Both the position numbers and the translations under genes were made by a program. A stretch of DNA of 40,000 nt from NCBI GenBank assembly GCA_963835875.1, contig CAWIGX010000003.1, positions 498,100 to 538,099 on the forward strand. Direction: 5' to 3'. Numbering within the stretch: the first letter of the stretch is position 1; every line of letters starts with the position of its first letter. The stretch comes from an uncultured Nitrososphaerota archaeon. Its GTDB lineage: Archaea; Thermoproteota; Nitrososphaeria; Nitrososphaerales; Nitrosopumilaceae. This document shows, in pieces, positions 8,534 to 31,617 of this stretch. The notes below the pieces were generated by a model. The model was not told the origin of the DNA. It saw only the letters and a program-made list of their open reading frames with translations, and searched no databases.

Positions 8534-8616
8534 TCATTTGGTCTTCAAAATGTACAATATTAAATATTGTGGCAGTTTCGTTTGATTTAAATTAAAAAAA
8601 CAATTTCCGATAACGA

Positions 8617-15239: not shown

Positions 15240-16764
15240 ATGGATAAAATAATAGTATTAGATTTTGGTTCGCAGTATAGTCATCTTATTTGTAGAAGAA
15301 TTAGAGAATTTTCAGTATATTCTGAACTTGTTCCATACAACATATCACCCGAAGAACTAAGAAAGATGAATCCAAAAGGGATTGTATTTAGTGGGGGACC
15401 TGCAAGTGTATACAATAAGGATTCACCACAACCATCAAATGAAATATTTGAGATTGGACTCCCAGTACTTGGAATATGTTATGGTCATCAATTAATTGTT
15501 AACAAATTTGGTGGCAAGGTTAAGCGTTCTCACAAGGAGTATGGTTCATCATTACTTAGCATAGATAATGATTCAGATCTACTTTCTGGGATGGGTCAAT
15601 CAACAAGAGCTTGGATGAGCCATGGGGATGCTGCTGAAAGTCTTCCAGAAGGATTTGAGGTGATAGGACATACTGAAAATTCTTTTGCAGCGGCAATTGC
15701 AAATAAACAAAAGATGGTATATGGTATTCAATTTCATCCAGAAGTAGTACATACTGAAAATGGAGTTCAAGTACTGAAGAATTTTGTTTTAAACATATGC
15801 AAAGCAAAACAAGATTGGACTTTGGAGAATTTTATAGAAACAACAGTTACAGAAATTTCAAAGATTAATGGTGATGTATTATGTGGGATAAGTGGAGGTA
15901 TTGATTCTACAGTAGCAGCATTATTAATTCAAAAAGCTATAGGAAATAGACTCAAGTGTGTTTTTGTAGATAATGGTCTTTTGCGACTAGATGAAGAAGT
16001 AGAAGTAGAAAACATGTTTGAAAATAATTTTGGTATGAATTTTACAGTAATAAACGCAAAACAGCGATTTCTTTCTAGATTCAAAGGAGTAACTGATCCT
16101 GAACAGAAACGAATGATTGTTGGAGAAGAATTTGTCAAGGTATTTACAGAGTTTGCTGAAAAGAATGGTCCTTTCAAATGGTTAGCTCAAGGTACACTAT
16201 ATCCAGATGTCATAGAAAGTGGAATTTCCAAGGGCCCAGCAGCAGTAATTAAGACTCACCATAATGTAGGAGGATTACCACCATGGTTAAACTTGCAAGT
16301 ATTGGAGCCTCTAAGATTCCTTTACAAGGACGAGGTAAGAAAAGTTGGCAAAATTTTAGGAGTATCAGATAAACTTCTTAATCGTCATCCATTTCCAGGA
16401 CCTGGTCTTGCTGTAAGAGTGATGGGTGAATTGACTCCAGAAAAATTACAGATCTGTAAACATGCAAGTAAAATTGTAGAAGATGAACTTGCGTCTTCAG
16501 CATGGTATGATAAAGTTTGGCAAGCTTATGCAGCAGTAGGAGATGATAGAGCGGTAGGAGTAGTTGGAGATGAAAGAAAATATGGTCATGTTGTTCTTGT
16601 TAGAGTAGTAGATTCTATTGATGCAATGACTGCAGATTGGACAAGATTGCCTTCAGATATACTTGAAAGAATTAGTAATAGAATTACAAACGAGGTTGAA
16701 GATGTGGCATGGGTAAGCTTATGTAATTTCAAGTAAACCACCTGCTACTATAGAACCTCAATAA
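15240..16764 (+). CDS. guaA: GMP synthase (glutamine-hydrolysing); true C-terminus recovered after a 1-nt frameshift at ~16716
   Basis: GATase motifs (ICYGHQ, HPE) and the ATP-PPase motif SGGIDS. The track ORF ends ...EDVAWVSLCNFK* at 16736. Skipping base 16716 gives ...WVAYVISSKPPATIEPQ* (stop at 16762-16764), which matches the conserved GuaA tail Y-x-I-x-x-KPPATIE. The span is 1525 nt = 3n+1. Confidence 0.9.
16749..16763. repeat. left target-site duplication TATAGAACCTCAATA (contains the guaA stop codon)
   Basis: An identical 15-mer sits at 29001..29015, immediately outside the two inverted termini. Exact identity extends to 23 bp (16749..16771 = 29001..29023). Confidence 0.8.
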
Positions 16765-16816
16765 AAATAGAACACCCCTAGTTTACTCGTGAAAATCTGA
16801 CGCTTGTCGTAAAAGT
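16764..16816 (+). repeat. left terminal inverted repeat
   Basis: AAAATAGAACACCCCTAGTTTACTCGTGAAAATCTGACGCTTGTCGTAAAAGT. The first 15 nt are identical to the reverse complement of the right end. Confidence 0.8.
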
Positions 16817-16844
16817 ATTTTGTCTATCATGTATGTGATCAATT

Positions 16845-17690
16845 ATGACAGATCAAAAACCACCTAATTATAAAACTGTGGGGGAAATTCTCGAGGGATA
16901 TCTCAATTATGTGTCAGAATTTATTGAAAAAATAGGGGATGAGAATCCAATGCCCTTTTACAATGAAACTGTAGCAAAAATGAGAATAATTCAAAAAAAT
17001 ATTATTCAAATAAATTCACCTTTTCTAAAAGATACTGATCTTCACGATCTCTATGACGTAGTATTATCAATACTGATTAATTGGAATGGTGATATTACAA
17101 AAAACGTTCGTAACTATGTAGACGCTCACATAGAAATTGCAAGAAATTCGTTTGCAAAAAAAGACAACTATAATCCAATGATAGTAATAATTAATGAAAG
17201 AGATCGTTTTCTTAATGCTAATACTGTATTTGAACAAGTTTTGAGAAAGATCAATAGTAAAATGATAGAAGAAGTAGAACTGTATGCACTCTTTTTTGCA
17301 TTAATTTCTTCTCAGGAAGTAATGGAAAAAACTCTTTATGCTGAAATAAGCGGAGGAATTAAAAAATTCAATATTGAAAATTATGATCTAATTGAAATGT
17401 TTTCAGTCACTGGAAAATGGAAAGATAGTGACGGATTTTTTAAAACAGATTCCAAAGTAATTAGAAATTCACTATCTCATTTCGATTTTGAACTTGTACG
17501 AGATCAAGGTTTGATAATATTTCATCCAAAATCTCAAGATGCTGAGATTAAGAAAACTTTTACCTTGCGTGAATTTTTAAAATATGTTTCAAATAGTAGG
17601 TTTCTTTTACAGACATTCTATGTGGCATTATGTGTACTAACTTCTTTTACATTATTACGCAAATACTATGTCATGCATGATAGCCCATGA
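16845..17690 (+). CDS. hypothetical protein with Rx4H (HEPN-like) motif
   Basis: Mostly alpha-helical-looking 281-aa protein containing VIRNSLSHFDFE (R-N-x3-H). Stop overlaps the next start (ATGA). Confidence 0.35.
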   Translation: MTDQKPPNYKTVGEILEGYLNYVSEFIEKIGDENPMPFYNETVAKMRIIQKNIIQINSPFLKDTDLHDLYDVVLSILINWNGDITKNVRNYVDAHIEIARNSFAKKDNYNPMIVIINERDRFLNANTVFEQVLRKINSKMIEEVELYALFFALISSQEVMEKTLYAEISGGIKKFNIENYDLIEMFSVTGKWKDSDGFFKTDSKVIRNSLSHFDFELVRDQGLIIFHPKSQDAEIKKTFTLREFLKYVSNSRFLLQTFYVALCVLTSFTLLRKYYVMHDSP

Positions 17691-18112
17691 TGGATCCTTT
17701 TGATGAACTGATGAAACTATGGGACAAGACAAGTGATGAGCATATTACATGGCAAAAAACAAGACATGTACATTCCATGGATGAAATGTTTGAAACATTA
17801 AAGAAATTACTAGCTAAACAAGAGGAGATTGAAAAATATGCAGAGATCATCAAGCCCTTACCTGCTGTAGATAAAGCCCCCGCTCTTGCGGCTAAATACA
17901 AAAATCTCTATCAGATACAATCATTTCTTTCAGACGTTTTGTTGGAATTGTTTTCACGAGTAATGTCAGAGATGAAAAAGAAGATACCTGCAAATGATTC
18001 TCTTGATCCTAGGATACAATTCATGATAACAGAGCAGGTTCGAATCGAAGTTGCCAAGAAATTACAAAAACCAAAGGTAAAACATGACACTAAAAGGAAG
18101 AAAAAAATCTGA
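17687..18112 (+). CDS. hypothetical protein with Lys-rich C-terminal tail
   Basis: 141 aa, translationally coupled to the upstream ORF. The tail KPKVKHDTKRKKKI resembles the tail of ORF 18156..18719. The stop codon lies inside the internal TIR-motif copy. Confidence 0.45.
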   Translation: MMDPFDELMKLWDKTSDEHITWQKTRHVHSMDEMFETLKKLLAKQEEIEKYAEIIKPLPAVDKAPALAAKYKNLYQIQSFLSDVLLELFSRVMSEMKKKIPANDSLDPRIQFMITEQVRIEVAKKLQKPKVKHDTKRKKKI

Positions 18113-18124
18113 CGCTTGTCGTAA
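18104..18124 (+). repeat. internal third copy of the subterminal TIR motif AAAATCTGACGCTTGTCGTAA
   Basis: Exact 21-nt match to 16792..16812 in direct orientation (24/25 if extended). The right TIR carries the inverted version (TGACGCTTCTCGTAA). Confidence 0.8.
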
Positions 18125-18155
18125 GAGTTAAGACTCAACAAAGATCATAAAATTT

Positions 18156-18719
18156 GTGAAAAAAGAATTCAATGATCTAAAAGAACACCTTCAATTTACA
18201 TTTGATTTTGATCAAGATACTAGAGGATCTTATCTATACCAAACTGCAGAAATTGAATCCTTGGTAGAACAAATTATTGCCTATCACTACTGTAGTGAAG
18301 ATTTGAAAAAGATGAATTCTTTTTTATCCCTAGTTTTAAGCCAGTTAAATTTTAATTCTAAAATTAAAATTTTCTTGAAGATATTAGAAAAATACATTGA
18401 GTTCAAAGATGAGTATCCCATCATAAAAACAAGCCTTCCAAATATTCAATCATTTAGAAATAAACTGGCTCATTCACGACTAGATACATCCTACGAATTC
18501 ATACAAAGACGTCAGCGTAAAATAAGATTGATTTCACAACGAGATGAGAAGATCCAACTTTTAGAAATAACAGAGAAACTTGTAAAACAAAAAAATAAAG
18601 AAATTGCTACGCTACACATGAAACTGAATAAAATTGCTAATAAAATCAGCAAAGGAGAAGTAGGAATTTTAAAACCAGTTGTAAAGCTTGACTCTAAACG
18701 GAAGAAAAAATCACTATAA
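18156..18719 (+). CDS. hypothetical protein with Rx4H (HEPN/Abi-like) motif
   Basis: FRNKLAHSRLD (R-N-x3-H, as in AbiD/F-type HEPN proteins) in a helical 187-aa protein. C-terminal tail is KPVVKLDSKRKKKSL. Confidence 0.4.
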   Translation: MKKEFNDLKEHLQFTFDFDQDTRGSYLYQTAEIESLVEQIIAYHYCSEDLKKMNSFLSLVLSQLNFNSKIKIFLKILEKYIEFKDEYPIIKTSLPNIQSFRNKLAHSRLDTSYEFIQRRQRKIRLISQRDEKIQLLEITEKLVKQKNKEIATLHMKLNKIANKISKGEVGILKPVVKLDSKRKKKSL

Positions 18720-18787
18720 TGTAAGATTATGCTAGTTCATTTTTAATATCAAATTTTTTATTAATTCCAGTTTCTCTTATAGAAGGT

Positions 18788-19441
18788 TCAATATAGATTG
18801 GTAAAATTGGTGAGTTTATCAATGGCAAATTTACGATCAAAGTTTTTTATCAGGTCTTTTGATGCAGATTTTTCAAAATAAAAACCAAACACTTGCTTTC
18901 CAGCATTTTTTACAGCTTTCACCAAATCCACAAAATCAGCATCGCCTGCAATCAATACAGCCCAATCATAATGATTTTCATATGCCTTACTCAACATGTC
19001 TATTGCGATTAAGGAATCCACCCCTTTTTGTCTAAATTCCCAATTATCCTTATTTTCCGCCCCTCCTTTTGTAGATAGCACTAATCTTCCTAACTTGATT
19101 TCAAAAAAATCTGTCTTCTCTATTTCTTTAATATATTGATTTTGTGTGGTAGATGTTTTTTCAATTTTTTCTTTAGCAATTTCTGATACGTCTGGTGTGA
19201 GTTGCTCCACATTCTGATCTGATGCTATGGCATCATAGTAATAGGTTCGTATGAGATGAGGCATTATATGATCAGTAGAAAGTTCGTGCATTATAGCTCC
19301 GATTAGTTTTTGATATCCTGTAAATTCTTTAGAAAAAATATCGCGAATATTTTTTCGTAGATAATATCCATCTATAAAACATATTACAGACATGAATTTT
19401 TTTGGAATTAACTGTGAACTGACTTGGTTCATACTACCCAT
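18788..19441 (-). CDS. NYN/LabA-like (PIN-related) putative ribonuclease
   Basis: CFIDGYY..., KGVDSLIAIDM and VLIAGDADFVDLVKAVKNAGKQV follow the NYN acidic-residue pattern. Confidence 0.6.
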   Translation of the reverse strand: MGSMNQVSSQLIPKKFMSVICFIDGYYLRKNIRDIFSKEFTGYQKLIGAIMHELSTDHIMPHLIRTYYYDAIASDQNVEQLTPDVSEIAKEKIEKTSTTQNQYIKEIEKTDFFEIKLGRLVLSTKGGAENKDNWEFRQKGVDSLIAIDMLSKAYENHYDWAVLIAGDADFVDLVKAVKNAGKQVFGFYFEKSASKDLIKNFDRKFAIDKLTNFTNLY

Positions 19442-19496
19442 GAATATTTTAAACTAATTCTTGATTTAAGGTTGTTGACAAATTTGCCATAAATCT

Positions 19497-20402
19497 TTAA
19501 GATCTATATTTCTCTAATGATGCATCACATATTTGTATTACTTTATTCAGAATAGTTGAGATTGTAGTAAGCTCTATCTGCAAAACGGATGATGGTTCAT
19601 AAAACTGTCTTTGTAATAGTCTCTTGGATTCTTCATTATCAGAATGATTGAATCCTTCTATTTGTGTATTGAATTTTGTAAGAATATGTAACATTTTTAC
19701 AACATCTTCTTGATCATTACCTAACAATTTCTTTTCCCTTAGAAATGACTCGTTTGAAAGTATTGCATCCCTCATAAAGTAAAGATCTATTGGCGTAGCT
19801 TTGATAACTGTTGAAGGGTGGATGGATTTAGCAAGATTAAGTGTTTGTAGGAATTCGTCACGAAGTAAGATGGCGGAAGAACGAAGCTTTTCAAGGTTTT
19901 TGATTTGTTCTACTGAATTACTAAATAGGTTTAAAATTGCAGTTCTTCCCACTCGTTGGCTTGAGCTATGAAGTCTTACGAAACATTGATCTGTGCTTGT
20001 TATGAAATAGGGTTTCTCTGAAGTTTTACTTTCTATTTTGATTACTGTATAGAATTTACTTTCATCATCTTCGTAAATGTGACGTATTGTTATAGTTGGA
20101 GTAGGTTCCACAAGGAACCTAAAATTGTTAATTTTGTTTCCAAGAGGATCTTCTTCGCCTTTTGTAAAACCTATTTTTTTAAATCCGATTAATGTTTTAT
20201 CGTCTTCGCCTTTTCTCTGACCAATTCCCAATACTATGAAGCCACCTTTGGCATTTGCCATTGCACATATGTCCTCATGAAGTTCACTCGGTTTATCCTT
20301 GAAATCAAATATCTCTGATTCTATGGATGGTATATTCATCATTTTATCAAGCAATTTGATATTGAATTCTTCTAATTTTTCAGGAATAGTAACTAATTCC
20401 AC
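19497..20402 (-). CDS. Schlafen/AlbA_2-domain protein
   Basis: ESEIFDFKDKPSELHEDICAMANAKGGFIVLGI matches the AlbA_2 (divergent AAA-4) E-x-x-x-E/D-F-K ... A-x-A-N-x-x-GG-x-I-x-x-G pattern. It lies 55 bp upstream of the NYN gene on the same strand. Confidence 0.55.
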   Translation of the reverse strand: MELVTIPEKLEEFNIKLLDKMMNIPSIESEIFDFKDKPSELHEDICAMANAKGGFIVLGIGQRKGEDDKTLIGFKKIGFTKGEEDPLGNKINNFRFLVEPTPTITIRHIYEDDESKFYTVIKIESKTSEKPYFITSTDQCFVRLHSSSQRVGRTAILNLFSNSVEQIKNLEKLRSSAILLRDEFLQTLNLAKSIHPSTVIKATPIDLYFMRDAILSNESFLREKKLLGNDQEDVVKMLHILTKFNTQIEGFNHSDNEESKRLLQRQFYEPSSVLQIELTTISTILNKVIQICDASLEKYRS

Positions 20403-20528
20403 ATACTGTGTTCATCTAAGTGATTATTATTTTCTAGTATTGTCGAGATATTCTTTATTCTTTAAATTTTAAGTCATAAATGTCAAAAGAAGTGATTATA
20501 TGAGTGCGTGACTATTATTGGATAGCCT

Positions 20529-21044
20529 ATGAATTATCGTGATAGTGCCATACAGTGGTCTAAAACTTTTCCATTCACAGTGTTGTGTGCCATAATGTCA
20601 ATTGTATTGACAATCAATCCATCTATTGTTAATGTTGAATTTCTTAAAACCTATTTGTTTAATCAATACGCAGGATGGAATATGTGGATAATAGGATTAA
20701 TCCCATTTGGATTTGGATTGGTAACGCTTGTAAAACTTGTTTTAAAACAATTCAAGAAGAAAAAACAATATACAAACGATGGAAAAATCTCATATAGATT
20801 TATTTTTGATGTAATACATGTTCCAATGTTTTATGCTATTGACCTTACTGCCATTTTTGGCATGATTATTGGATTATTGATCATATGTGTTCCCGAAGCT
20901 GCAAAACCAGAATATCATCAGATCCACATTTTTGAAGTATTTTTTAATGCTTTTTGCGTTCCTTATGTTTCAATAATCTATTATTATGGTAAAACATTAT
21001 GGGAAGAATCAGCCCCACACTCAATCATAAATCATTTAAAATAA
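20529..21044 (+). CDS. hypothetical integral membrane protein (about 4 TM helices)
   Basis: Hydrophobic segments throughout. No motif recognised. Confidence 0.5.
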   Translation: MNYRDSAIQWSKTFPFTVLCAIMSIVLTINPSIVNVEFLKTYLFNQYAGWNMWIIGLIPFGFGLVTLVKLVLKQFKKKKQYTNDGKISYRFIFDVIHVPMFYAIDLTAIFGMIIGLLIICVPEAAKPEYHQIHIFEVFFNAFCVPYVSIIYYYGKTLWEESAPHSIINHLK

Positions 21045-21117
21045 TCAGTAAAAACCAGTTACAAAATAGTAGAGATTTAAAAATTCAGGTCATTATTCTG
21101 GGGTTTGTCACATGTGA

Positions 21118-21600
21118 TTAGCGCTGCCTAGATATTTTGCGTAAACAGAAAAAAGCGTTAACGTCGTGCATGGATTCGTTGATTTGGCGCATGAAAATCG
21201 AGATATTAGCGCATAATAGTCGCGCATTTACGCGCGCTACAGCATGATAATCGAGCGTGTTATAGTTCAAAGTTCGTAAATGGATCCATCGCACGATTCT
21301 AAAATGCGCTTTTTTTAGCGCTAAGCGCATCAAGCACTCATTTTGCGCTAGTGCGATTCAAAAAGCGAAGGGCGGTTTTGCACAAAAGGCGCCAAAAAAT
21401 CAATGCACCGTGCACAGGCCTATCATCGGCGCATGATAAAAAAACGCGCACGCCGTAAATTGAATCATTCTTGGAATCAATTCCGCACGATACGGATCGA
21501 AATTCATGCGCGTATGGTTCCAGTAAGATCCGCTTTGAGGATCCGAATCATACGCGTAAAGATCCAAAATAATTGGATCCGAAATATGAAATGGTTCATC
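21118..21600. other. CpG/GC-enriched non-coding island with GCGCA/TGCGC and GGATCCGA repeats
   Basis: Sits between convergent genes. Hand counts of 60-nt blocks give about 42-45% G+C, against a visibly much more AT-rich background. GCGCA or its complement occurs about 9-10 times. GCATGA(A/T)AATCGAG occurs at 21189 and 21242. (A/G)GATCC occurs four times in 21527-21581. Confidence 0.5.
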
Positions 21601-21645
21601 TTTGAAACATGATAAATTATTTTAGATCTAAATTTATGAAAAGAA

Positions 21646-22211
21646 CTATTCTGGTTCTAACCTAATCACTGGCTGTCCGGTCTGGCCTATCTCTACTGCC
21701 ATCATGTCTAGAAATTCTTCAGCAACTCTTTGGTGAGCAAGTGATGTAATCAGAGACTTTCTTTTGAAATATCCTATGAGAATTCTCATAATCTCATATG
21801 CAAGCGGAGCCTTCCAAAGATCAAACTTTCTAGTCTCATTGATTTTTTTATAATCAGATATTGGAAAATCCCCAAAAAGTGCAGTCAACATATCAGCCAA
21901 AGGAGAAGGAGTAAGAGGTTTTCCAGAAATATAACGGTGATCAAATATCTCTTTTACTTGTTCGGGGTGTGCTACTAAACAAAAAACTCCAGATCCTTGA
22001 GGCCATTTTTGACGGTCTTTCTTGTATCGTACCAAAAATCAGGGCTTTCTTTTTCATCCTCCTCCTCATCCGTTGGTTTTGCCTTTACTCCTAAGAGTTT
22101 TCGGCGCTTGTCTTCGGTAAATATTCCTCCGTATGCATCAAGGTGATCCTTGAACTGATCGTGGATAATCTTACGATGTTTTTCTACAAGTTTTCGTCGA
22201 TAATTAGCCAT
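21646..22211 (-). pseudogene. hypothetical casposon protein split at a T6 run (-1 shift needed)
   Basis: ORFs 21975..22211 and 21646..22035 overlap in different frames. They join as ...KNGLKDLEFF|CLVAHPEQVKE at the homopolymer 21981..21986. The span is 566 nt = 3n+2. Confidence 0.5.
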
Positions 22212-22266
22212 ATTATGTCTAATATCGTCATGATTTGTCTATTAAGTATTTCGATCAATAGTATGT

Positions 22267-22644
22267 ATGAGAAGACTTGATAAACTGTTCAAGGAACTTG
22301 GCATAGTTAAAAAAGAAATAGAGTTAACACAGACATTCAGACCGACAAAACAAACTAGAGAATTTCTAAGACGTTTGTTTGCTGAATATAGTCATATTGT
22401 AAACAGTATCAAAAAATTGCAGTTATCTTCAGAATCAAAACAAGAAGAACGAAAACAAAGAGGGCATCGAGCAAATCTAAATCGTAGTACAAAAATGAGT
22501 CGGGCTTGGAGATTCTTTAAAGCAATACAAGAAAATTATCTTCCTGATACATCTACAAAAGAAATTCGATCACAATTTTCTAAATTCAAAAAGGGATTGG
22601 AGACTGACATTTCTAATATAATTTGGAGGAATCCTAGTCCATGA
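22267..22644 (+). CDS. small basic protein translationally coupled to polB (candidate terminal protein or accessory factor)
   Basis: 125 aa, rich in K/R/S/T. Its stop overlaps the polB ATG (ATGA at 22641-22644). Confidence 0.45.
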   Translation: MRRLDKLFKELGIVKKEIELTQTFRPTKQTREFLRRLFAEYSHIVNSIKKLQLSSESKQEERKQRGHRANLNRSTKMSRAWRFFKAIQENYLPDTSTKEIRSQFSKFKKGLETDISNIIWRNPSP

Positions 22645-24518
22645 CTTTACAAATACATCTTCCAAAATCAAAACCTAAAGATCTTACATACATCAAAACA
22701 AGAGAACAATATAGAAATGTAAACGGATCATCGCGTCGTAAAGCAGTAGGAATTGATACCGAAACACAAGACGGAGATATCTTTCTAATTTGTGATTCTG
22801 ATGGAAATTTTATAGACTATCCAAACATTACATTTGATAATATAGCAGAGTTTCTTTTCAAGCATGAAGGTTCTTGGCTGTTTTGTTACAATTTACAATA
22901 TGATGCTGAATGTATAATGAAATTATTACCTTCAGAGGTATTTGAGCCATATAGAAAGAAAAAGCAATTAGACTTTGAATACAAAAATTATTCAATTACA
23001 TACATTCCAAAAAAGCAACTCAAAATACAAAAAGGCAATCATACTGTTTCTCTTTACGATATTGCACAATACTATGACAATGTGCCACTAAACAAGGCAT
23101 ATTCTGATCACATCAAAAAACCTCTTGATCAAGACTATCTTGAAACTAAGAAAATGCGTAAATCTTTTAGTGTTAGACACTATCTTAGGCACAAAAAGCA
23201 GATTCGGAAATACTGTATTACAGATTGCATTCTAACAAAGGAATTAGCAGAGCACTGGTTAGATACATTCTTTGAGGCATATGGTTTCTATTCTGCAAAT
23301 TGGATTAGTTCTGGATATCTAGCAGAAAAGGTACTGATCCACGATAGGATACAAATTCCATTCTTTGGGGATACGTTATATGATATACAGAAACTAGCAT
23401 GGGAATCGTTTTACGGTGGACGATTTGAGCTGATACAGCGTGGATTTATCGGTGAATGTTATCTGTATGATATCAATTCTGCATATCCGTATGCTTTTAC
23501 ATTTCTTCCAGATATTACAGATGGAAAATGGATCCAATCTAAGAAAATAAATCCAAATTCTGCATTAGGGTTTTTTCATATTCGTGCACAAGTAGATTAT
23601 TCTGTCAAGATTGCACCATTTCCATTTAGAACTAAAAATAACAGGATAATCTATCCAACTGGAGAGTTTGAAACTTTTGTTACATTGGAAGAACTAAAGG
23701 CAGTAACTGGAGATCCAAAAATAAAATACAAGATAATTGATTCATACCAGTTCATTCCAAATGTAAATTGCAAATATCCATTCAAAGAATTCATTATAAA
23801 ACAATATAATAAAAGAATGGAACTGAAAAAACAAAATAATCCGCTAGAGCGCGCAATCAAAATAATACTGAATTCAATGTATGGTAAAACTGCACAACGT
23901 GTGAATAATAAAATGGGTAACTTGTTCAATCCCGTAATTGCGTCATATATTACAGGATTTGCAAGGGCACAACTATACAAATTTGTAAAAGATCATCAGT
24001 TGGAAAAACATGTAGTTGCTTTTGCTACTGATTCTATTGCTTGTAGAAAAAAGATTGTTGGGCTGGATAGTAGAAAACTAGGTGAGATGAAACTAGACAA
24101 GGAAGCAAGTGACGCATATTTTCTATCAAATGGATTTTATCTCATAAATGGAATATGGAAGAATCGCGGGATCGGGTACGATACCGAGAGAAAGGTCGAG
24201 ATCGAGCACTTGACTACCAAAATAGATCCTAAAGGTAACCTGTACATCACAGTTAAAACTACGAAAACTATGCACATCAAAAGCGGAATCATCTACAATA
24301 AACTCGACAAAATCGGCAAAATTGAGGAATATGAAAAGAAAATTGGTCTCAATTCAGACAGAAAACGCCATTGGTTTTCTGACTTGAAATCCTTGAAAGA
24401 AAAGACATTTTGCGATTCCGTACCCGTTCCAATTGATTTGGTGGATGATATTATTTCAAAGAACGAGATTGAATGGGTTACAGATGATGATGTGTATGAT
24501 CCTGAAAGTGAACTATGA
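22641..24518 (+). CDS. polB: family B DNA polymerase, protein-primed (pPolB) type
   Basis: Exo I GIDTETQDG, Exo II NLQYDAECI, Exo III YCITDCILT. Pol A LYDINSAYPYA, Pol B KIILNSMYGKTAQ, Pol C VAFATDSIA. Compact at 625 aa. Confidence 0.85.
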   Translation: MTLQIHLPKSKPKDLTYIKTREQYRNVNGSSRRKAVGIDTETQDGDIFLICDSDGNFIDYPNITFDNIAEFLFKHEGSWLFCYNLQYDAECIMKLLPSEVFEPYRKKKQLDFEYKNYSITYIPKKQLKIQKGNHTVSLYDIAQYYDNVPLNKAYSDHIKKPLDQDYLETKKMRKSFSVRHYLRHKKQIRKYCITDCILTKELAEHWLDTFFEAYGFYSANWISSGYLAEKVLIHDRIQIPFFGDTLYDIQKLAWESFYGGRFELIQRGFIGECYLYDINSAYPYAFTFLPDITDGKWIQSKKINPNSALGFFHIRAQVDYSVKIAPFPFRTKNNRIIYPTGEFETFVTLEELKAVTGDPKIKYKIIDSYQFIPNVNCKYPFKEFIIKQYNKRMELKKQNNPLERAIKIILNSMYGKTAQRVNNKMGNLFNPVIASYITGFARAQLYKFVKDHQLEKHVVAFATDSIACRKKIVGLDSRKLGEMKLDKEASDAYFLSNGFYLINGIWKNRGIGYDTERKVEIEHLTTKIDPKGNLYITVKTTKTMHIKSGIIYNKLDKIGKIEEYEKKIGLNSDRKRHWFSDLKSLKEKTFCDSVPVPIDLVDDIISKNEIEWVTDDDVYDPESEL

Positions 24519-25420
24519 TTTTTCATCAACTCTACAAAGATTTCATACTTTTCATGATTTTTTCAAAAGTTTCATTCTTTCAACTATTTTTCATGACTTT
24601 TCATTAACACTTCAAAGCTTTCGCTATTTCCTTGATTTTCAATGACTTTTCATCAACTCTACAAAGATCCCCACTCTTACCATGATTTTCCTTGATTTTC
24701 AATCATTTTTCGTTAGATCTTCAAACCTTCCATTCTTTCAACGATTTTCATGACTTTTCATCAGGTCTTCAAAGCTCTCAATCTTTCAATGATTTTTCAT
24801 GACTTTTCATCAATTTTTCAAAGTTTTCACTCTTCCAACGATTTTCAACGACTTTTCATGATTCTTTTCAAAGATCCTCCATTACTATGATTTCCTTGTG
24901 ATTTTTAATCACTTTTCATCATATCTTCAAAGCTCTCAATCTTTCAATGATTTTTAATCACTTTTCATCATATCTTCAAAGCTCTCAATCTTTCAATGAT
25001 TTTTAATCACTTTTCATCAGGTCTTCAAAGCTCTCAATCTTTCAACGATTTTTCATGACTTTTCATCAGGTCTTCAAAGCTTATCGTCATTTCCTTGGTT
25101 TTTAGTAATTCTTCAGTAGATCTTCAAGACTCTCATTCTTACCTTAATTTTCCTTAATTTCCTTCAGGATTATCCTAAATTCCCTCATGATTTTCCTTGA
25201 TTTTTAGTGATCTTCTATCAGGTCTTCAAAGTTATCATTCTTTCAATGATTTCTTATGACTTTTCATCAGCTCTTCAAACCTTCCATTCTTTCAATGATT
25301 TTTCATCAGCTCTTCAAACCTTCCATTCTTTCAATGATTTTTCATAACTTTTCATCAGCTCTTCAAACCTTCCATTCTTTCAATGATTTTTCATGACTTT
25401 TCATCAGCTCTTCAATGATT
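24514..25420. repeat. array of ~18 degenerate 49-bp tandem repeats (non-coding, pyrimidine-rich top strand)
   Basis: The consensus unit is approximately TTTTCATCAGGTCTTCAAAGCTCTCAATCTTTCAATGATTTTTCATGAC. 24900..24948 and 24949..24997 are identical. Two sub-families (..GGTCTTCAAAGCTCTCAAT.. and ..GCTCTTCAAACCTTCCATT..) cluster locally. The array starts on the polB stop codon. Stops occur in all frames. Confidence 0.9.
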
Positions 25421-25493
25421 ACATGAAACTACAAAAGTTAGAGAAGAAAAATATTAATCCGAAATGGATTTGTAAGTTTTTAAAATTCATAAA

Positions 25494-25553
25494 TAGAGAA
25501 TTCGATTGTATAGTAGAGAATTCGATTGTATAGTAGAGAATTCGATCGTGGAG
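25494..25553. repeat. 3 x 20-bp tandem repeat TAGAGAATTCGATTGTATAG
   Basis: Two exact copies and one diverged copy. The unit length is not a multiple of 3, so it is non-coding. Confidence 0.85.
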
Positions 25554-25572
25554 TAGAAACAAGGGGTATTGG

Positions 25573-25635
25573 TGATGACTGATGATGTGTTGATGATGAC
25601 TGATGATGTGTTGATGATGACTGATGATGTGTTGA
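25573..25635. repeat. 3 x 21-bp tandem repeat TGATGACTGATGATGTGTTGA
   Basis: Three exact copies. One top-strand frame reads (MTDDVLM)x3. Confidence 0.85.
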
Positions 25636-25767
25636 TGAGGTATAGACGATCTGTTAGGATCTTTTAGACCAATCAGAAAAGTACCTATATGTAGTAACTG
25701 CGGTCTCAAAGAAAAAAAGATCGCCGAAAAATGTTCGGTATGCAAGTCGCCTTACATACTTGCATAA
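25575..25767 (+). pseudogene. possible small repeat-plus-zinc-ribbon ORF, out of frame as sequenced
   Basis: ATG at 25575 gives (MTDDVLM)x3 and then stops at 25665. The +1 frame continues GIDDLLGSFRPIRKVPICSNCGLKEKKIAEKCSVCKSPYILA* (CxxC...CxxC) but has no start codon of its own. The span is 193 nt = 3n+1. Confidence 0.25.
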
Positions 25768-26345
25768 TTCTCACCTTAGGAAATACTGATAATCTGAATA
25801 AAATTTTTCAATCAAACTAAACTTTCATTTAAATTTTTAATGAACAATTCTCTAAACTATGTTATTTGTGATCTAATGTCTAGACTAGAAATTTGATCTT
25901 AGGCATGGATTAAATTTTTATGTTTAGTTCTTCAAATAATCTCATACTATGAAAATTGTAACGGTGTCAACAAAATTGATCCAAAGTCTAGCTTTAGAAA
26001 ATTATTTTTCGCCGCAGTGTTTATTTAACTCCCATTTGGTAAAAGTAGTAGGTTAAGAGAAGGGGATCATGAAACTCGGATGTGACCAATTCCTCTATAG
26101 AGGTACGAGCTCCCTTCTCCTCTGACCTATTTCTAAATCAGATTTAGTGATTTATCCTAATTACTTAGAATCTAGAATTCAGAGAATATAATCATAGTGG
26201 TTGCAGCCTTTGACAAAAAACATAGCAGTTGTTGTCATTCCCTTAGTATCTTTACGCTTAACCTAATTTCAAATGCTGAAATAGTTAATTTATAACAATA
26301 TCAAAATAACCTTGATCTTTTATACTCTGAAACTTGAATCCTTTC

Positions 26346-26492
26346 GTGACTGAAGAAAAACCAAGATCTCCTTCTAGAAACGATATTCAGGACAACAAGA
26401 TTCCCTTACAAGAGGCGTATAATCCAAAGGGGATAATTGCAGCTCGTGGAAAACAGCCTCCGCCTACAGAAAATACTAATACTCAAAATTAA
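26346..26492 (+). CDS. small hypothetical protein with a YNPxG motif (GTG start)
   Basis: The 48-codon ORF VTEEKPRSPSRNDIQDNKIPLQEAYNPKGIIAARGKQPPPTENTNTQN shares the (Y/F)NPxG(I/L)xxxR motif with the next ORF. Confidence 0.3.
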   Translation: MTEEKPRSPSRNDIQDNKIPLQEAYNPKGIIAARGKQPPPTENTNTQN

Positions 26493-26502
26493 ATTATGGA
26501 GT

Positions 26503-26700
26503 GTGGTAAAAAAGAAAAAGACTAGAAAAACTACTAAGATTAATTATGCGTTTAATCCCAATGGTCTTACTAAATCTAGAAATACAAAGAAAACTACAGA
26601 TGATAATTCTAAAACCATCAAACTTTTTGATTATAATCCAGAGGGCTTGATCAAAACACGTAATACTAAAAGAAAAAAGAAAACTAATAATGACGGTTGA
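26503..26700 (+). CDS. small Lys-rich protein with two (Y/F)NPxG(L)xK(S/T)RNTK repeats
   Basis: YAFNPNGLTKSRNTKK and FDYNPEGLIKTRNTKRKKK. An in-frame GTG at 26503 lies 10 nt after the previous stop. The track's ATG at 26437 would overlap the previous ORF. Confidence 0.35.
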   Translation: MVKKKKTRKTTKINYAFNPNGLTKSRNTKKTTDDNSKTIKLFDYNPEGLIKTRNTKRKKKTNNDG

Positions 26701-27100
26701 TACTATTGCTCAAGTAGTAAGTGCCGCAGCTGCTACAATAGGACTAATTTATGCTGGTTATCAAATCAGTTCAGATAATAAAACAAAACAATTGACGTTA
26801 TTGCAAAATGTCTATAGTGATATTAAGGAACTAGAACAGCGGTTTTACGATAAATATGAAGAACAGAATGAAGAAGAGAAACACACATGGGATTATCAAT
26901 TTTTTAATCAGTTAGAATGGTTTGCTTTTTTGATCAACAAGAAAAAAATAAAAGATAAAAATCTTATAGAATTCTTCAAATCGGCAATAATACAATGGTA
27001 TGAGAAAATTTTTCTTGTGCACTTTGATAAAGATGTAATAGATGACAAGGATCAATTTGATGAATTTAAAAAACTGTATCACAAATTCAAAGAATCTTAA
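26690..27100 (+). CDS. hypothetical protein with N-terminal TM anchor
   Basis: IAQVVSAAAATIGLIYAGY helix followed by a charged soluble domain. 136 aa. Confidence 0.5.
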   Translation: MTVDTIAQVVSAAAATIGLIYAGYQISSDNKTKQLTLLQNVYSDIKELEQRFYDKYEEQNEEEKHTWDYQFFNQLEWFAFLINKKKIKDKNLIEFFKSAIIQWYEKIFLVHFDKDVIDDKDQFDEFKKLYHKFKES

Positions 27101-27122
27101 TTTTAAATTAGTGAGATTTTCT

Positions 27123-27245
27123 CTATTCTGATTTCTTTTGAATTTTAATATGATGTCCGCATACACAGATAATTGTTTTTTCTTCATGGGCAGTAGTAGG
27201 TATTTCAAATATTTTCCCACATCTTGGGCATACAACATGTCCCAT
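27123..27245 (-). CDS. 40-aa zinc-ribbon protein downstream of cas1 (below the ORF-track size cutoff)
   Basis: The reverse strand from ATG 27245 reads MGHVVCPRCGKIFEIPTTAHEEKTIICVCGHHIKIQKKSE*. It has CPRCG ... CVCGH metal ligands and is on the same strand as cas1, 65 nt downstream. Confidence 0.45.
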   Translation of the reverse strand: MGHVVCPRCGKIFEIPTTAHEEKTIICVCGHHIKIQKKSE

Positions 27246-27310
27246 GAGATATCTGAAAATACCCTGTTAATAAAGACACAATTTTAAACCATATTTGTAA
27301 AATTATAGAC

Positions 27311-28426
27311 TTATTCTTTTTGTAAACAAAAATTTTTCAATTCAATACACTTCATCTTCATTATAGTGATCTCTTCCATCATCTGGTAACCGTCTTTTCT
27401 TCTAATTCCAGTTCTTGCCTTGTAATCTCTTTTCCTATCAAATATTGTAGAAAGCAAATCAATGTATTTTTTCTTCAATTCATCAGATAAAACCACAATT
27501 CCATCCCTTGAAAAAACATAATCCTTCTTTCTTATCTGATCCTGAATCTCAAATACACTTCTATCTATCAGATGCCTAAACGGTTCTATCATGTCATACA
27601 CTAGAGCCAGATGGGAATCATGATTTCTGTGATAAAATCCTACAAAACAATCCAGACCTAATACATTGAGTTGCTTTGCAATCTCTGAATATAATATAGA
27701 AAATCCATAATTTAGAAGACCATTGATTACATCTGAAGCATCTTTTGGCCTGAAATGCCTAACATTGTTTCTTGAATTAAATTTCAATTCAGGGTTTACT
27801 AGCAAGGATAAAGTTGGATAATACAATTTGGCAATATCACTTTCTACCTTCATTATTTCTCGTAGTTCGTGAGCAGAGGATAAGTTTTGGAAGCGTTGCT
27901 TGATCAGTAAAATTACATTTCTGATCTTTTCTTTTGCTTCAGGTTTTACCTTGAGAGAATAATTCATAGCAGTTTGGTTATTGCAGACCTGCCAAGCTTT
28001 ATTGTATGAATTATAGACTTGTTTTGGTTCTGCAATAAATTCCTCAAACAATTTGATCTGTGATTCAATCTTTTGAAAGACTAACCACTTTCTAAGAAAT
28101 TCTAACTTTTTTGGATCCCTAAAGGCATCATATTGATTTTGCCTAATTAGAGGCTCATGACCGCCTATCTTGTGAAAATAACTAAATAACTTGCCACGTT
28201 TATCAAGCATTACAACATTGATGTTGGATTCTGCAAGACGTTCTAATGATTCTGTTGAAACATAACCCTTCCCTTGAATCACTACTTTATCAAATGGGCA
28301 TGCCGAAGATGGTAGTTCTAAAATTTCCCTTTTACCATTGAAGGGATCAATTCCTTGAGAAAAGACCAGTCTTGTATTTTGTACCTTTATTGAAAGACCG
28401 TAACCGCGTAAGAATAATGATCTCAT
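27311..28426 (-). CDS. cas1: Cas1 homologue (casposase)
   Basis: N-terminal beta domain LFLRGYGLSIKVQNTRLVF. Catalytic-region pattern VESDIAKLYY (Glu), NGLLNYGFSILY, GFYHRNHDSHLALVYDMIEPFRHLIDR (His, Asp/Glu). 371 aa. No cas2, cas4 or CRISPR array anywhere in the window. Confidence 0.85.
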   Translation of the reverse strand: MRSLFLRGYGLSIKVQNTRLVFSQGIDPFNGKREILELPSSACPFDKVVIQGKGYVSTESLERLAESNINVVMLDKRGKLFSYFHKIGGHEPLIRQNQYDAFRDPKKLEFLRKWLVFQKIESQIKLFEEFIAEPKQVYNSYNKAWQVCNNQTAMNYSLKVKPEAKEKIRNVILLIKQRFQNLSSAHELREIMKVESDIAKLYYPTLSLLVNPELKFNSRNNVRHFRPKDASDVINGLLNYGFSILYSEIAKQLNVLGLDCFVGFYHRNHDSHLALVYDMIEPFRHLIDRSVFEIQDQIRKKDYVFSRDGIVVLSDELKKKYIDLLSTIFDRKRDYKARTGIRRKDGYQMMEEITIMKMKCIELKNFCLQKE

Positions 28427-28428
28427 GA

Positions 28429-28920
28429 CTACGGATTTTTACACTGATAGGCGCAGATTATTGTTATGAACCAAGTAATTGTTACAAGAAAAGCGAGTAA
28501 CATTCCAAACATTATGCCTAGAGTTATCATAGTCTCTTTGTTCATCTTTTTTTCTTCTTCTTGGTCTGGTGTACCAATTTTAATGAGAGCGAAAATGAAC
28601 CAACCGATAGGAACAAGAAAACACACCACTGAAATTAGATAGTAACTCACTTTTGCTAATAACGGAATCGAGGCTACCGTTGGGGCAACCAAGTACAGCA
28701 ATAATTCCAGTGATTTTACAACCTTTGGATTATGTTTTCTTAACCTCTTCCAGTAAAGAAAAGTAATTCCAGCTCCAGACGCACCGGAGATAGCAATCAA
28801 TTGTTGCAAATCATAACTAATAACAATTGTAGGCTTATGGAATAGAATAAGATAGATCAAAAATGCTGCAACTACTAGATCTAGTCCTGCAAGAATTATT
28901 TTCTTGATCTTTAGATCCAC
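28429..28920 (-). CDS. integral membrane protein (about 5 TM) immediately upstream of cas1
   Basis: Its stop is 2 nt from the cas1 ATG. It starts about 30 nt inside the right TIR. Confidence 0.5.
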   Translation of the reverse strand: MDLKIKKIILAGLDLVVAAFLIYLILFHKPTIVISYDLQQLIAISGASGAGITFLYWKRLRKHNPKVVKSLELLLYLVAPTVASIPLLAKVSYYLISVVCFLVPIGWFIFALIKIGTPDQEEEKKMNKETMITLGIMFGMLLAFLVTITWFITIICAYQCKNP

Positions 28921-28947
28921 ACAATCTTAGTTATTTACACAAGCATA

Positions 28948-29000
28948 ACCTTTACGAGAAGCGTCATGTTTTCAAGCGTAAAGTGGGGGTGTTCTATTTT
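28948..29000 (-). repeat. right terminal inverted repeat
   Basis: The reverse complement reads AAAATAGAACACCCCCACTTTACGCTTGAAAACATGACGCTTCTCGTAAAGGT. Confidence 0.8.
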
Positions 29001-29015
29001 TATAGAACCTCAATA
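29001..29015. repeat. right target-site duplication TATAGAACCTCAATA
   Basis: Identical to 16749..16763. It is followed by AAAATAGA, which also equals the element terminus. Confidence 0.8.
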
Positions 29016-29068
29016 AAAATAGAGAGTCATTTATCAAAATTTAAAAGAAAATTTTAAAAATAAGAGAA

Positions 29069-30433
29069 CTAAGGTACTACGTTTATCGCAGCACTAGGTG
29101 GATTACCCTCTCGAACTACTGTAATCTTTACTGTGCTACTATCTGAACCATATTCGTTGGTTACTGTGAGTTTGAATTCTACTACTTTTTGTTGGTTATA
29201 GTCAACAATTGGTGAATAGAATGCTGGTTGAGCAGTACCACTTAATATCAAAGTGACTGGTGCACCGCTAATTTGCTGCCACTGGTATTTTAGATTCACA
29301 CCTGTGCTAGCAGTTCCATCCAATACAACTCTGCTATTTGGATCAACAGTTTGATCTGTACCGGCATTAGCTACTGGAGGCTGTCCTGGTGTTGGCATAT
29401 TGTTAACATTTACAGTGACAGAACATGATGGAATATCAACAAGATTATCAGTAACATCTAGTGTAAATTGAAGTTTACCACTTGGACCATTTGGTGTTGG
29501 AGCTACAAATGATGGAGTCATGTCAGTATTAGATGACAATTGTACCGGTTGTCCAGAAACCTGTCTCCAGTAATATGATATGGTATCACCACTTGGATTT
29601 GCAACTGATAATGGTAGTCTAACTAGAGAGTTTGAATTAACTGAAGCATCTTGACATGTGACAGTTGGATCTTGGTGAATACTCTTGACTGTAACTTGGC
29701 TCATAGCAGATGCCTTTCCTCCGTGTCCATCATCTGCACTAAATACGAATAACAAAATAGCAGTTTGACCAGGTGGTACTGCTGGTGCAACAAATGATGT
29801 ACTAGTGGTATCAATTGAGGATAATTGGACACTTGAACCAGAATATTGACCCCATGAAAGTGTCAATGGATCATTATCTTGGTCTGTTGCTGTACCTGTG
29901 AGAGAAACTTGTGTTCCTTCATCAACAACTTGATCAGAATTTACTTTAACTACTGGAGGATGATTAACATGTAAAACTATAATGTTGAATGTTGTTGTAT
30001 CTTTTAGCCCATATCCATCATCTACAGTTAATGATAATGTTAAAGATTTGACTTGATTTGCAGGAACTGATGGAGTTATGAAAGATATAACTGGAACATT
30101 AGAACTTGGAGAGAAAGTTACTGCGTCACCTGAAGTTTGTCCCCACTGATATGACAATGTCTTGCCCATATCAGGAGTTGTTGATTTGAGACCTGAAAGT
30201 GTTACTTTAGTATTTTCGTTGACTATAATGCTATTTGCCAATGCGCCTTGTAAGAAATATTGGTTCAGAGTACCAGATTTAGCAACATTTGCGGTATAGA
30301 AATTAGTACAGTAAATATTACCAGTACCTTGGAATTGTTGAATACATTGTTCAAGGGCTTGTCCTGCAGCGTCACTGCTTCCTGTGCTAGTTTGAGCATA
30401 TGCAGCCATTGGTAATACAGAAGAGAAAATCAT
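29069..30433 (-). CDS. secreted/surface protein with four PKD/Ig-like repeats
   Basis: Four ~90-aa modules each carry Y-x-W-x-Q-x-SG-x-x-V (YQWGQTSGDAVTF, LSWGQYSGSSVQL, YYWRQVSGQPVQL, YQWQQISGAPVTL). The N-terminus is probably longer: a TTG at 30470 gives MNYKFFAPILV in the -1-nt frame and is preceded by a TATA-like TTTTTTAATAA. 29069..30470 is 3n+1. Confidence 0.7.
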   Translation of the reverse strand: MIFSSVLPMAAYAQTSTGSSDAAGQALEQCIQQFQGTGNIYCTNFYTANVAKSGTLNQYFLQGALANSIIVNENTKVTLSGLKSTTPDMGKTLSYQWGQTSGDAVTFSPSSNVPVISFITPSVPANQVKSLTLSLTVDDGYGLKDTTTFNIIVLHVNHPPVVKVNSDQVVDEGTQVSLTGTATDQDNDPLTLSWGQYSGSSVQLSSIDTTSTSFVAPAVPPGQTAILLFVFSADDGHGGKASAMSQVTVKSIHQDPTVTCQDASVNSNSLVRLPLSVANPSGDTISYYWRQVSGQPVQLSSNTDMTPSFVAPTPNGPSGKLQFTLDVTDNLVDIPSCSVTVNVNNMPTPGQPPVANAGTDQTVDPNSRVVLDGTASTGVNLKYQWQQISGAPVTLILSGTAQPAFYSPIVDYNQQKVVEFKLTVTNEYGSDSSTVKITVVREGNPPSAAINVVP

Positions 30434-30602: not shown

Positions 30603-31617
30603 TCATTGTATATTATTCCCGATAAATGATAAAACTTCATCCATTGTCGGTGGAATTCCAAGAGAATTACGGACATATAATGAGGCAGTAGCATTTGCAA
30701 GTCCAAGTCTTTCAAGAGGATCAAGGTTAGCAAGATAACCAAGTAGATTTGCAGCATCCCAAACATCTCCAGCCCCCGTTACAAACTTTGGTTGTACTTG
30801 GAAAGATTTGACAAATTCAACCTCTTTTCCGTTTGACCAATAGGATCCTGTGGATGTATGAAGATCTATGGGTATGGAAGATCTTTTCAGCTAATTCAAG
30901 TACCAGTTTTCTGGTTTCGCTCTCTCCAGAAATTATGTCTAATCCCACCTGTTTGAGAAGAATATTACATTCATTTTCATTAATACATAAAGAATCTAAA
31001 TCATCTGCAAGTTTGGTTAATGCATCTTTGAATTCTTTTGGTCTTGTTTGTATGTCAGCAGGATCCAAGAAGTGAAATGCAGATGTAGATTGTGAAAAGG
31101 CAAATTGTGAAAGTTCAGTCCCCTTTTCATTACTTGCCCAGTTTGTTACAATTACAGCATCTGCATTTTTTATTGCATTTTTCTCTTTCATTCCAAGCTT
31201 TTCAGGTCCAAAATTCTCATTATCACCTAAATCAGAGATCATTATGTTTACAATGTTTCCAGCATTGCTAAATTCAAGAGATGTTGTTCTTCCAGGTTTT
31301 CCATCAATTATAAAAAGTGAGACATTACTAAATTCAGAAAAAGTTTCATTAAGTATGTTGGAACAAGTTTTATCCGCGATTGTAATTAATGAGACTGGAC
31401 AACCAAGTCTTGCAAGTGCGTAGGCAACATTTGTTGCGTTTCCACCCTTCAGATCTGTTTGTGAAATTCCACGGATGCTTCCTCCCAATTTACTTTTTTC
31501 TAAAATTTGAGTGTAAAGATCATTCAAGTTTGGGATCCTGATGATACGATCTAGAAAAAAATCATTTAGTACAACAACTGAGTTGGTTAGTTTTAGATTG
31601 TGTAGCTTTTCTAACAT
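30603..31617 (-). pseudogene. PfkB-family carbohydrate/nucleoside kinase split by one surplus nucleotide
   Basis: The N-terminal ORF (30817..31617) carries GGNATNVAYALARLG. The frame that opens at 30890 reads SSIPIDLHTSTGSYWSNGKEVEFVKSFQVQPKFVTGAGDVWDAANLLGYL...GNNIQ*, which includes the PfkB signature TGAGD. The shift lies between 30820 and 30890, probably near 30880. The span is 1015 nt = 3n+1. Confidence 0.8.

Follow-up and report, generated by a model that had tools for sequence, protein, structure and literature searches.

Why does a gene for a Cas1 homolog lie behind the GMP synthase gene guaA of an uncultured, ammonia-oxidising Nitrosopumilaceae archaeon, and did the DNA around it arrive there as a mobile element? 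The question was raised by a stretch of 40,000 nucleotides (contig CAWIGX010000003.1, positions 498,100 to 538,099), called here the window, whose coordinates are used throughout unless a related metagenome locus (L followed by a number) is named. An earlier note on this DNA had read 16764-29000 as a casposon, a self-synthesising Cas1 transposon, of about 12.2 kb. Casposons are rare and are the presumed ancestors of the machinery for CRISPR adaptation; to our knowledge, most of the evidence until now that they moved recently concerns family 2, in Methanosarcina. We found the inventory of the element where the note had placed it, to within one base. The element is a family-1 casposon that spans most likely 16763-29001 (12,239 bp), and we are highly confident that it integrated site-specifically at the stop codon of guaA, as a recent arrival in its lineage. 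It is a new member of this family with a target that appears to be unreported, and its insertion was shown to be polymorphic; whether it is autonomous is uncertain.

Results

Ends of the element and the empty site

The longest inverted repeat of the region 16000-30000 pairs 16749-16816 with 28948-29015 (68 nt, 81%). Trimming to symmetric ends left terminal inverted repeats (TIRs) of 54 nt, at 16763-16816 on the + strand and at 28948-29001 on the - strand, and it is on this symmetry that the most likely boundaries of the element are based. The two TIRs matched at 46 of 54 positions with the first 16 perfect, one base more in each respect than the 53 bp, 45 of 53 and 15 first reported, and the best inverted match over 54 nt was 34-38 in ten shuffled versions of the region. 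The left TIR shows the tip AAAAATAGAACACCCC and a subterminal motif, TGACGCTTGTCGTAAAAGT, and both blocks are kept in about 40 casposon ends.

The element is framed by a direct repeat of 23 identical nt (16749-16771 and 29001-29023). The 15-bp flanking repeats previously noted lie inside it; the true identical repeat is longer and the target-site duplication (TSD) probably shorter. Since the TIR tip and the native flank both start with AAAAATAGA, any split inside the 23-nt repeat fits, that of 15 bp included. A TSD of 13 bp is what we infer from the TIR symmetry, from tandem junctions in relatives and from experiments on Ca. Nitrosopumilus koreensis. In L003, L004 and L008 the junctions between tandem casposons leave exactly 13 nt between T5 and A5, and the family-1 casposon of N. 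koreensis shows an apparent 22-bp repeat that contains an experimentally shown 13-bp TSD (PMC8464041). The two copies here would then be ATAGAACCTCAAT at 16750-16762 and at 29002-29014, both on the + strand; this sequence is present just twice in the window. After the right copy comes the native flank, AAAAATAGAGA, whose sequence imitates the TIR tip. The TIR and TSD signal survived proper alignment.

A GuaA scan of metagenome contigs returned 80 loci. In two of them, L026 and L027, the site is empty and o185, guaA, the PKD gene, pfkB and o541 are contiguous, guaA being directly followed by the PKD gene; the region is therefore not in all relatives. GuaA of these loci was 98.6% identical to that of the window, and the flanks showed 95.5-95.8% nucleotide identity over about 7.3-10 kb. 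The window without 16763-29014 aligned with both across the junction with no gap there, and the 13-bp target is present in single copy in the empty site. That a near-identical relative has the same site empty indicates that the element moved recently.

Each of the two insertion junctions was found again in Logan contigs that had been assembled separately. Of these, L106 comes from a second sequencing run and was 99.85% identical to the window, and L107 and L025 were 100% identical and may derive from the window's own sample. A chimeric assembly was rejected, because both junctions are found in separately assembled contigs.

The guaA stop codon as target

The target gene guaA (15240-16764, + strand; Pfam GATase/GMP_synt_C) has a native frame that ends in SSKPPATIEPQ and a stop codon at 16764, and relatives as well as L106 read through to there. 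The assembled open reading frame (ORF; 15240-16736) stops early, with one extra T near 16719 (16715-16722: AGCTTATG in the window versus AGC-TATG in L026, L027 and L106), and this frameshift replaces the conserved C-terminus of GuaA, YVISSKPPATIEPQ, by LCNFK and a stop. As L106 carries the same casposon insertion without the extra T, the indel is a strain-specific lesion or an assembly error.

The sequence ATAGAACCTCAAT followed by AA encodes I-E-P-Q-stop, the TSD consisting of the last four codons of guaA and the T of TAA. As the TSD ends in T and the TIR starts with AAAAA, insertion rebuilds the TAA stop and leaves the GuaA protein unchanged. The housekeeping flanks, guaA on the left and the PKD gene and pfkB on the right, were confirmed, with the correction that guaA is the target and not a mere neighbour, the TSD being the end of its coding sequence.

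Among the 19 TIR-occupied guaA ends, the TSD logo was ATHGARCCNCART, and the guaA target retains A1, A11, T13, the AAA flank and a T at -1. For the N. koreensis casposase acting on ef-2, A1, A11, T13 and the spacer-side AAA proved critical by experiment, with TIR oligonucleotides ending in TTCTA-3' (PMC8464041). The ef-2-type TSDs of L010, L013, L014 and L108 mostly share A1, T2, G4, A5, A11, R12 and T13 with the guaA logo, the exceptions to A1 being L108 and one L014 copy, which start with G. The literature gives ef-2, purD and an intergenic site as the known places of insertion for family 1 (PMC6563490). No paper linking casposons with guaA or GMP synthase was found within the limits of the library searched, so the guaA target appears to be unreported. 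Rfam, searched at E <= 1 in the element and at gathering thresholds in the whole window, gave no match, and no tRNAs were found; with no tRNA in the window, the element is not tRNA-targeted.

DNA polymerase and conserved core genes

The HMM (hidden Markov model) searches matched both core enzymes of the element, as Cas_Cas1 and DNA_pol_B_2. The family B DNA polymerase (PolB) of 625 aa (22641-24518, + strand) was assigned to the protein-primed type by Pfam DNA_pol_B_2 (E = 7.5e-25; PF03175, 'organellar and viral') and by motif alignment; a comparison of PolB with the PDB gave no sequence match. The exonuclease motifs Exo I (DTET), Exo II (YDAE) and Exo III (YCITD) and the polymerase motifs A (DINSAYP) and B (KIILNSMYGK) are present as previously described. 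Motif C, which had been counted as complete, is a variant ending in ATDS.

Directly upstream of PolB lie two conserved core genes. The gene o125 (22267-22644, + strand) has a stop that overlaps the PolB start, and its structure model is all-alpha with a predicted local distance difference test (pLDDT) score of 92.9. The other, o78/o129 (21646-22211, - strand), is split in the window into o78 (21975-22211) and o129 (21646-22035) and forms one ORF of about 182-190 aa in L111, L003 and L001. The module o129/o78-o125-PolB is kept in L001, L003, L004, L005, L054, L057 and L111, and o125 was found also in L010 and L012.

Several of these observations, together with some from the ends, count against a recently integrated family-1 casposon. 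PolB motif C (24020-24040) reads FATDS and not YxDTDS, the first Asp being gone. In this assembly a 1-nt deletion, which makes a T6 run, splits o78/o129 (GGAGTT-TTTTG in the window versus GGAATTATTCTG in L111). No terminal protein was identified in the element, and o125 has no recognisable fold relative (Foldseek against the PDB: nothing below E = 0.8), so that it is not identifiable as a terminal protein or a DNA-binding fold. The TIRs mismatch at 8 of 54 positions (85% alike), and the TSD length is ambiguous from the sequence alone, the native flank AAAAATAGAGA repeating the TIR tip AAAAATAGAAC. The first of these points is softened by the relatives: at the place of the missing Asp, seven related casposon polymerases have Ala and that of L010 has Tyr, and the variant is a lineage trait and not a lesion of this copy.

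The same observations bear on whether this is a genuine casposon but a dead copy, inserted recently and no longer autonomous, with a broken core gene and diverged ends. The o78/o129 frameshift means that the copy may be defective, unless it is an assembly error; the ends are only 85% identical; and decayed or miniature copies are frequent at the guaA site (L009, L035, L073, L076). Against this, both core enzymes, Cas1 and PolB, have their full length and their catalytic motifs, imperfect TIRs occur in known casposons too, and the o78/o129 indel makes a T6 run while the second single-base indel, that in guaA, is not in the sister contig, which makes an assembly error plausible. Both indels may be assembly errors or real lesions; the Logan contigs L112 and L113 end before they reach the o78/o129 indel. 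We therefore regard a dead copy as possible but unlikely. With a split core gene and TIRs 85% alike, the word intact in the earlier description of both enzymes and both ends is too strong.

Occupancy of guaA ends in relatives

The comparison covered 49 guaA ends from the clade in which guaA identity is 80% or more. A full TIR stands right after the stop codon in 19 of them, a remnant in 4 and none in 25, which are empty; one is cut by the contig end. The subclade with at least 90% guaA identity has only the window and a mini-element, L035, occupied, its 20 other full-length sites being empty, and the clade with 81-89% guaA identity, labelled Nitrosotalea, is mostly occupied. The Cas1 and PolB of the window are closest (83-86%) to those of this 81-89% clade. 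With the 20 empty sites, this makes horizontal gain far more parsimonious than many precise losses, and the comparison indicates that the casposon likely arrived by horizontal transfer.

If the relatives had precisely lost an ancestral element, and the lineage of the window had not gained one, this would agree with the occupation of many more distant relatives, with the 23-nt direct repeats, which could mediate precise deletion, and with the TIR-tip-like AAAAATAG(TCTA) after the stop codon at several empty sites. This reading would need many independent precise losses, as 20 of 20 other full-length sites of the subclade are empty, and it sits badly with an element whose enzymes are closest to those of another clade; we consider it very improbable.

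Beside a recent gain at guaA in the window lineage, the site proved to be a hotspot in relatives. Tandem arrays were found at guaA in L003, L004, L008 and L001, and back-to-back casposons share one 13-nt target copy in L003 (about 9333-9349), L004 (about 5592-5608) and L008 (about 340-356). L009 holds decayed copies, and L035, L076 and L073 hold mini-casposons with both TIRs and 13-bp TSDs. The mini-casposon of L035 (1576-3128, 1.55 kb) has identical 48-nt TIRs, and its sole intact gene is a homolog of the 163-aa membrane protein of the window element; that of L076 (11525-12619, 1.1 kb) has the structure TIR-o281-TIR with an o281 homolog as its only gene; that of L073 (1374-2398) measures about 1 kb.

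A TIR-tip-like sequence follows the guaA stop at several empty sites (L026, L028, L030, L038, L041, L103). In the empty L030 and L038 the sequence after the stop, AAAAATAGTCTA, is the tip of the L035 and L076 TIRs. Such sequences may have been left behind by an earlier occupancy, or they may be something that the target requires. One metagenome contains both the near-conspecific L027 with its empty guaA site (Ga0209415_10001694) and L111 with a related casposon core (Ga0209415_10061456), whose PolB is 89% identical in amino acids.

Casposase and family assignment

The casposase, a Cas1 homolog of 371 aa (27311-28426, - strand), matched Pfam Cas_Cas1 with E = 2e-46. Its closest solved relative is the M. 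mazei casposase 6OPM (E = 1e-25), to whose catalytic columns E195, H266 and D278 (plus E281) align, which bears out the Glu/His/Asp pattern first noticed. Only 33 residues extend beyond the Cas1 core, with about 108 more in 6OPM; no helix-turn-helix (HTH) match was found in the casposase with Pfam, and 33 residues leave no room for the HTH of family-2 casposases. The protein passes the generic cas1 model TIGR00287, and none of the CRISPR-subtype Cas1 models reached its cutoff. The window Cas1 was 33-38% identical to the Nitrosopumilaceae casposases of L010-L014, and the archaeal Cas1 relatives found (33-85% identity, pairwise only) all lie in PolB/TIR contexts. The closest Cas1 and guaA loci are from Nitrosotalea, Nitrosopumilaceae and Thaumarchaeota metagenome-assembled genomes (MAGs).

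The absence of cas2, cas4 and a CRISPR array, previously noted, was confirmed: neither gene was found among the ORFs of the element, and no CRISPR-like array occurs in the 40 kb, where the sole closely spaced repeats are tandem arrays inside the element; no CRISPR locus is thus nearby within that distance. That Cas1 should be the remnant of a CRISPR adaptation module, or a fixed part of a defence island with coincidental repeats, could draw on TIGR00287 and on the NYN, AlbA_2 and Rx4H proteins of the cargo, yet with no array, cas2 or cas4, no subtype model at cutoff, a casposase as best solved relative, and TIR, TSD and a precise empty site present, it is next to impossible, the empty site effectively refuting it.

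The element has a Cas1-family integrase without array or cas2, a family B PolB, TIRs with a TSD and a precise empty site, as casposons do. In the literature, family 1 is recognised by its thaumarchaeal hosts, by a PolB of the protein-primed type with three to four conserved genes of unknown function upstream of it, and by a casposase that lacks an HTH (PMC6563490; PMC9939771). A PolB of this type, a casposase without HTH, conserved genes upstream of PolB and a thaumarchaeal host were all found here, so that the assignment to the thaumarchaeal family 1 with its protein-primed-type PolB, which the earlier note had made, is upheld.

Left arm and subterminal motif

The left arm of the element, running from the TIR through o281 to o141 (16763-18106), was 89-90% identical to arms in L108 (5347-6260) and L109 (6968-8307). 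The L108 arm sits at the ef-2 stop codon with the TSD GTCGACAGCGAGT, and the L109 arm at a third site, ATTGATAATCAAT; the Cas1 fragments adjoining these arms are only 34-36% identical to the window Cas1. This pattern suggests that casposon arms, that is the TIR and the adjacent genes, were exchanged between lineages with very different casposases.

The first gene of the arm, o281 (16845-17690, + strand), belongs to a rare family with only 5 homologs, and homologs adjoin TIRs in L076, L108 and L109; it has an invariant Rx4H motif, IRNSLSH (R207/H212), and a poor AlphaFold2 (AF2) model (pLDDT 59.7). The gene o141 (17687-18112, + strand), with a basic C-terminal tail, ends the arm common to casposons at other targets. 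Compared with L109, the window contains a 604-bp insert (18107-18710) that carries o187 (18156-18719, + strand; RNKLAHS motif) and has 40-nt direct repeats at its edges (18067-18106 and 18671-18710, 83%). Because of these repeats around the 604-bp segment, o141 and o187 share the basic tail KP.VK.D.KRKKK.

The segment starts with a third copy, internal to the element, of the subterminal motif of the TIRs (18104-18128, + strand), and this copy is identical to 16792-16816 at 24 of 25 positions. The motif, (A)TCTGACGCTTGTCGTAAA, is thus present at 16792-16816, 18104-18128 and 28948-28972, and it is kept in about 40 casposon TIRs. All three copies end 27-28 nt before start codons (16845, 18156 and 28920; 27 nt for o187). 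This spacing fits an archaeal promoter with a transcription factor B recognition element (BRE) and TATA box for near-leaderless transcripts, and the motif (..GTCGTAAA..) is probably an inward-facing archaeal promoter.

Cargo genes, non-coding features and flanks

The NYN-domain protein (18788-19441, - strand; Pfam NYN 4e-17) is a predicted RNase and matches the candidate defence family HEC-09 (PADLOC, 1e-14). It is followed by a Schlafen/AlbA_2-domain protein (19497-20402, - strand; Pfam SLFN_AlbA_2 7e-14, PHROG 12156 1e-10) and by a predicted membrane protein of unknown family (20529-21044, + strand). The small unknown proteins o87 and o136 are encoded at 26437-27100 (+ strand), and a membrane protein of 163 aa is the first gene inside the right TIR (28429-28920, - strand). 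For the HEPN genes that the earlier note had listed among the cargo, there was no Pfam, PADLOC or NCBIfam match, and only an Rx4H motif, in o281 and o187, was seen; the NYN and AlbA_2 genes, the repeat array and the CpG island of that list were found. The genes for the NYN protein, the AlbA_2 protein and both Rx4H proteins may serve in defence or be toxin-like.

A non-coding island rich in CpG and GCGC (21100-21600) stands out by its GCGC count, 13 in the bin 21001-22000 versus 0-1 in each of the window's other 1-kb bins. The island is kept at the DNA level in the closest casposon (L003 19599-19847: 72%, 12 GCGC), with stops in all frames. Folding of its RNA gave z = -3.0 for the + strand and -2.25 for the other strand, and the region 25940-26140 gave -0.6 and -1.8, neither being decisive. 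This region overlaps a conserved non-coding stretch (25939-26132), whose counterpart in L004 is at 8407-8595 and whose 62-nt core (25968-26029) is 93.5% identical to L001 (2422-2483) and L057 (9537-9598), which exceeds the neighbouring cas1 gene; in L001 and L057 the stretch sits within a 68-nt tandem repeat. As Rfam gave no hit, the island and the stretch match no known RNA family.

Directly after PolB, a non-coding array of 49-nt tandem repeats (24541-25415; 17.6 copies, 71% identity) is T-rich on the + strand, with T-tracts phased about every 10 nt. It was not found in 12 related casposon loci. A gene or a CRISPR array was considered for it and rejected, with stops in all reading frames. 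Two short tandem repeats (25494-25638; 20 nt x 3.2 and 21 nt x 3.3) precede a Zn-ribbon frame (CxxC...CxxC) without a start codon (25639-25767, + strand), LLGSFRPIRKVPICSNCGLKEKKIAEKCSVCKSPYILA and a stop. The frame is kept in L004 (8690-8803), and the 21-nt repeats before the window copy are TGA-rich. Its product is similar to the C-terminal end of a chromosomal protein of 719 aa in L100 (727-2886), and it is for this reason probably a gene fragment.

On the right flank, the PKD protein is encoded at 29069-30433 and pfkB at 30817-31617. The pfkB product was 90% identical in amino acids to that of L026 and L027, far more diverged than o541 (99.8%) and guaA (98.6%). Exact-protein look-ups of guaA, o185 and the PKD protein returned no record.

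Discussion

Recent mobility of a family-1 casposon is documented here by a base-precise empty site in a near-conspecific and by the same insertion in a second sequencing run. Concerning the mechanism, the casposase would join the 3' ends of the TIRs (...GTTCTATTTTT-3') to both strands at the borders of the 13-bp target, and gap repair would then duplicate these 13 bp. The target would probably be chosen by the code measured for the N. koreensis casposase, with A1, A11, T13 and the AAA flank. Once the linear element is excised, PolB and the conserved proteins encoded upstream of it presumably copy it by protein priming, starting from the TIRs. We infer integration, excision, replication and promoter activity of this casposon from its sequence.

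A joint reading of the target and the arms can be proposed, which we judge to have an even chance: a degenerate target code, retargeting from ef-2 to guaA, arm swapping and the recent crossing of a mosaic copy. Family-1 casposases may read A1-T2-x-G4-A5...A11-R12-T13 with an A-run, and not a gene, and this code may by coincidence fall on the stop codon of ef-2 (I-D-K/S-E-stop) and on that of guaA (I-E-P-Q-stop). The Nitrosotalea-type clade may represent a natural retargeting from ef-2 to guaA, and the present copy may be mosaic in its make-up and have crossed recently into a lineage with the guaA site otherwise empty.

As a second widely used target that keeps the nucleotides critical at ef-2, guaA provides a natural test of target specificity. 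Its comparison with ef-2 bears on site choice by Cas1-type enzymes, on the evolution of leader-repeat recognition and on the engineering of casposases for site-specific insertion. The full, tandem, miniature and decayed copies of the guaA hotspot are material for the study of casposon turnover in ammonia-oxidising archaea.

Comparison with known systems

The family-1 reference set comprises NitAR1-C1 (Ca. Nitrosopumilus koreensis AR1), NitSJ-C1, NitAR2-C1, NitNF5-C1/C2, NitDev-C1/C2 and NitEve-C1. The element resembles these in the casposase without HTH, the protein-primed-type PolB and the conserved unknown genes (3-4) just upstream of PolB, and in the TIR tip AAAAA+TAGAA, which equals the TTCTA-3' end of the N. 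koreensis experiments. Also alike are the 13-bp TSD hidden in an apparent repeat of 22-23 bp with A1, A11, T13 and the AAA flank, the position right at the 3' end of a housekeeping gene and an element-specific nuclease cargo, comparable to the HEPN gene of NitEve-C1. Unlike known family-1 members, it is inserted at guaA (I-E-P-Q-stop) and not at ef-2, purD or an intergenic site; the central TSD positions are RCCNC instead of YARMG, and the ATAA ruler motif is absent here. Specific to this element, too, are its set of cargo genes, the array of 49-nt repeats and the CpG island.

With family 2 (AciBoo-C1 of Aciduliprofundum boonei, the Methanosarcina mazei casposons and NitNCS1-C1) it shares the Cas1-family integrase, of which 6OPM is the closest solved, TIRs and TSD, site-specific insertion at gene 3' ends and tandem arrays. 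Family 2 differs by the C-terminal HTH of its casposase, by tRNA gene targets with a TSD of about 14 bp and by another PolB type, not close to viral protein-primed polymerases. CRISPR-Cas adaptation by Cas1-Cas2 has in common with the element a homologous integrase active site, the staggered attack at the borders of a short duplicated sequence and the dependence on flanking 'leader' bases; unlike there, no Cas2 and no array are present here, and the integrated DNA is the 12-kb element itself. Polintons and pipolins carry their own PolB, as does this element, and pipolins also have defence-like cargo, but both integrate by retroviral-type or tyrosine integrases and not by Cas1.

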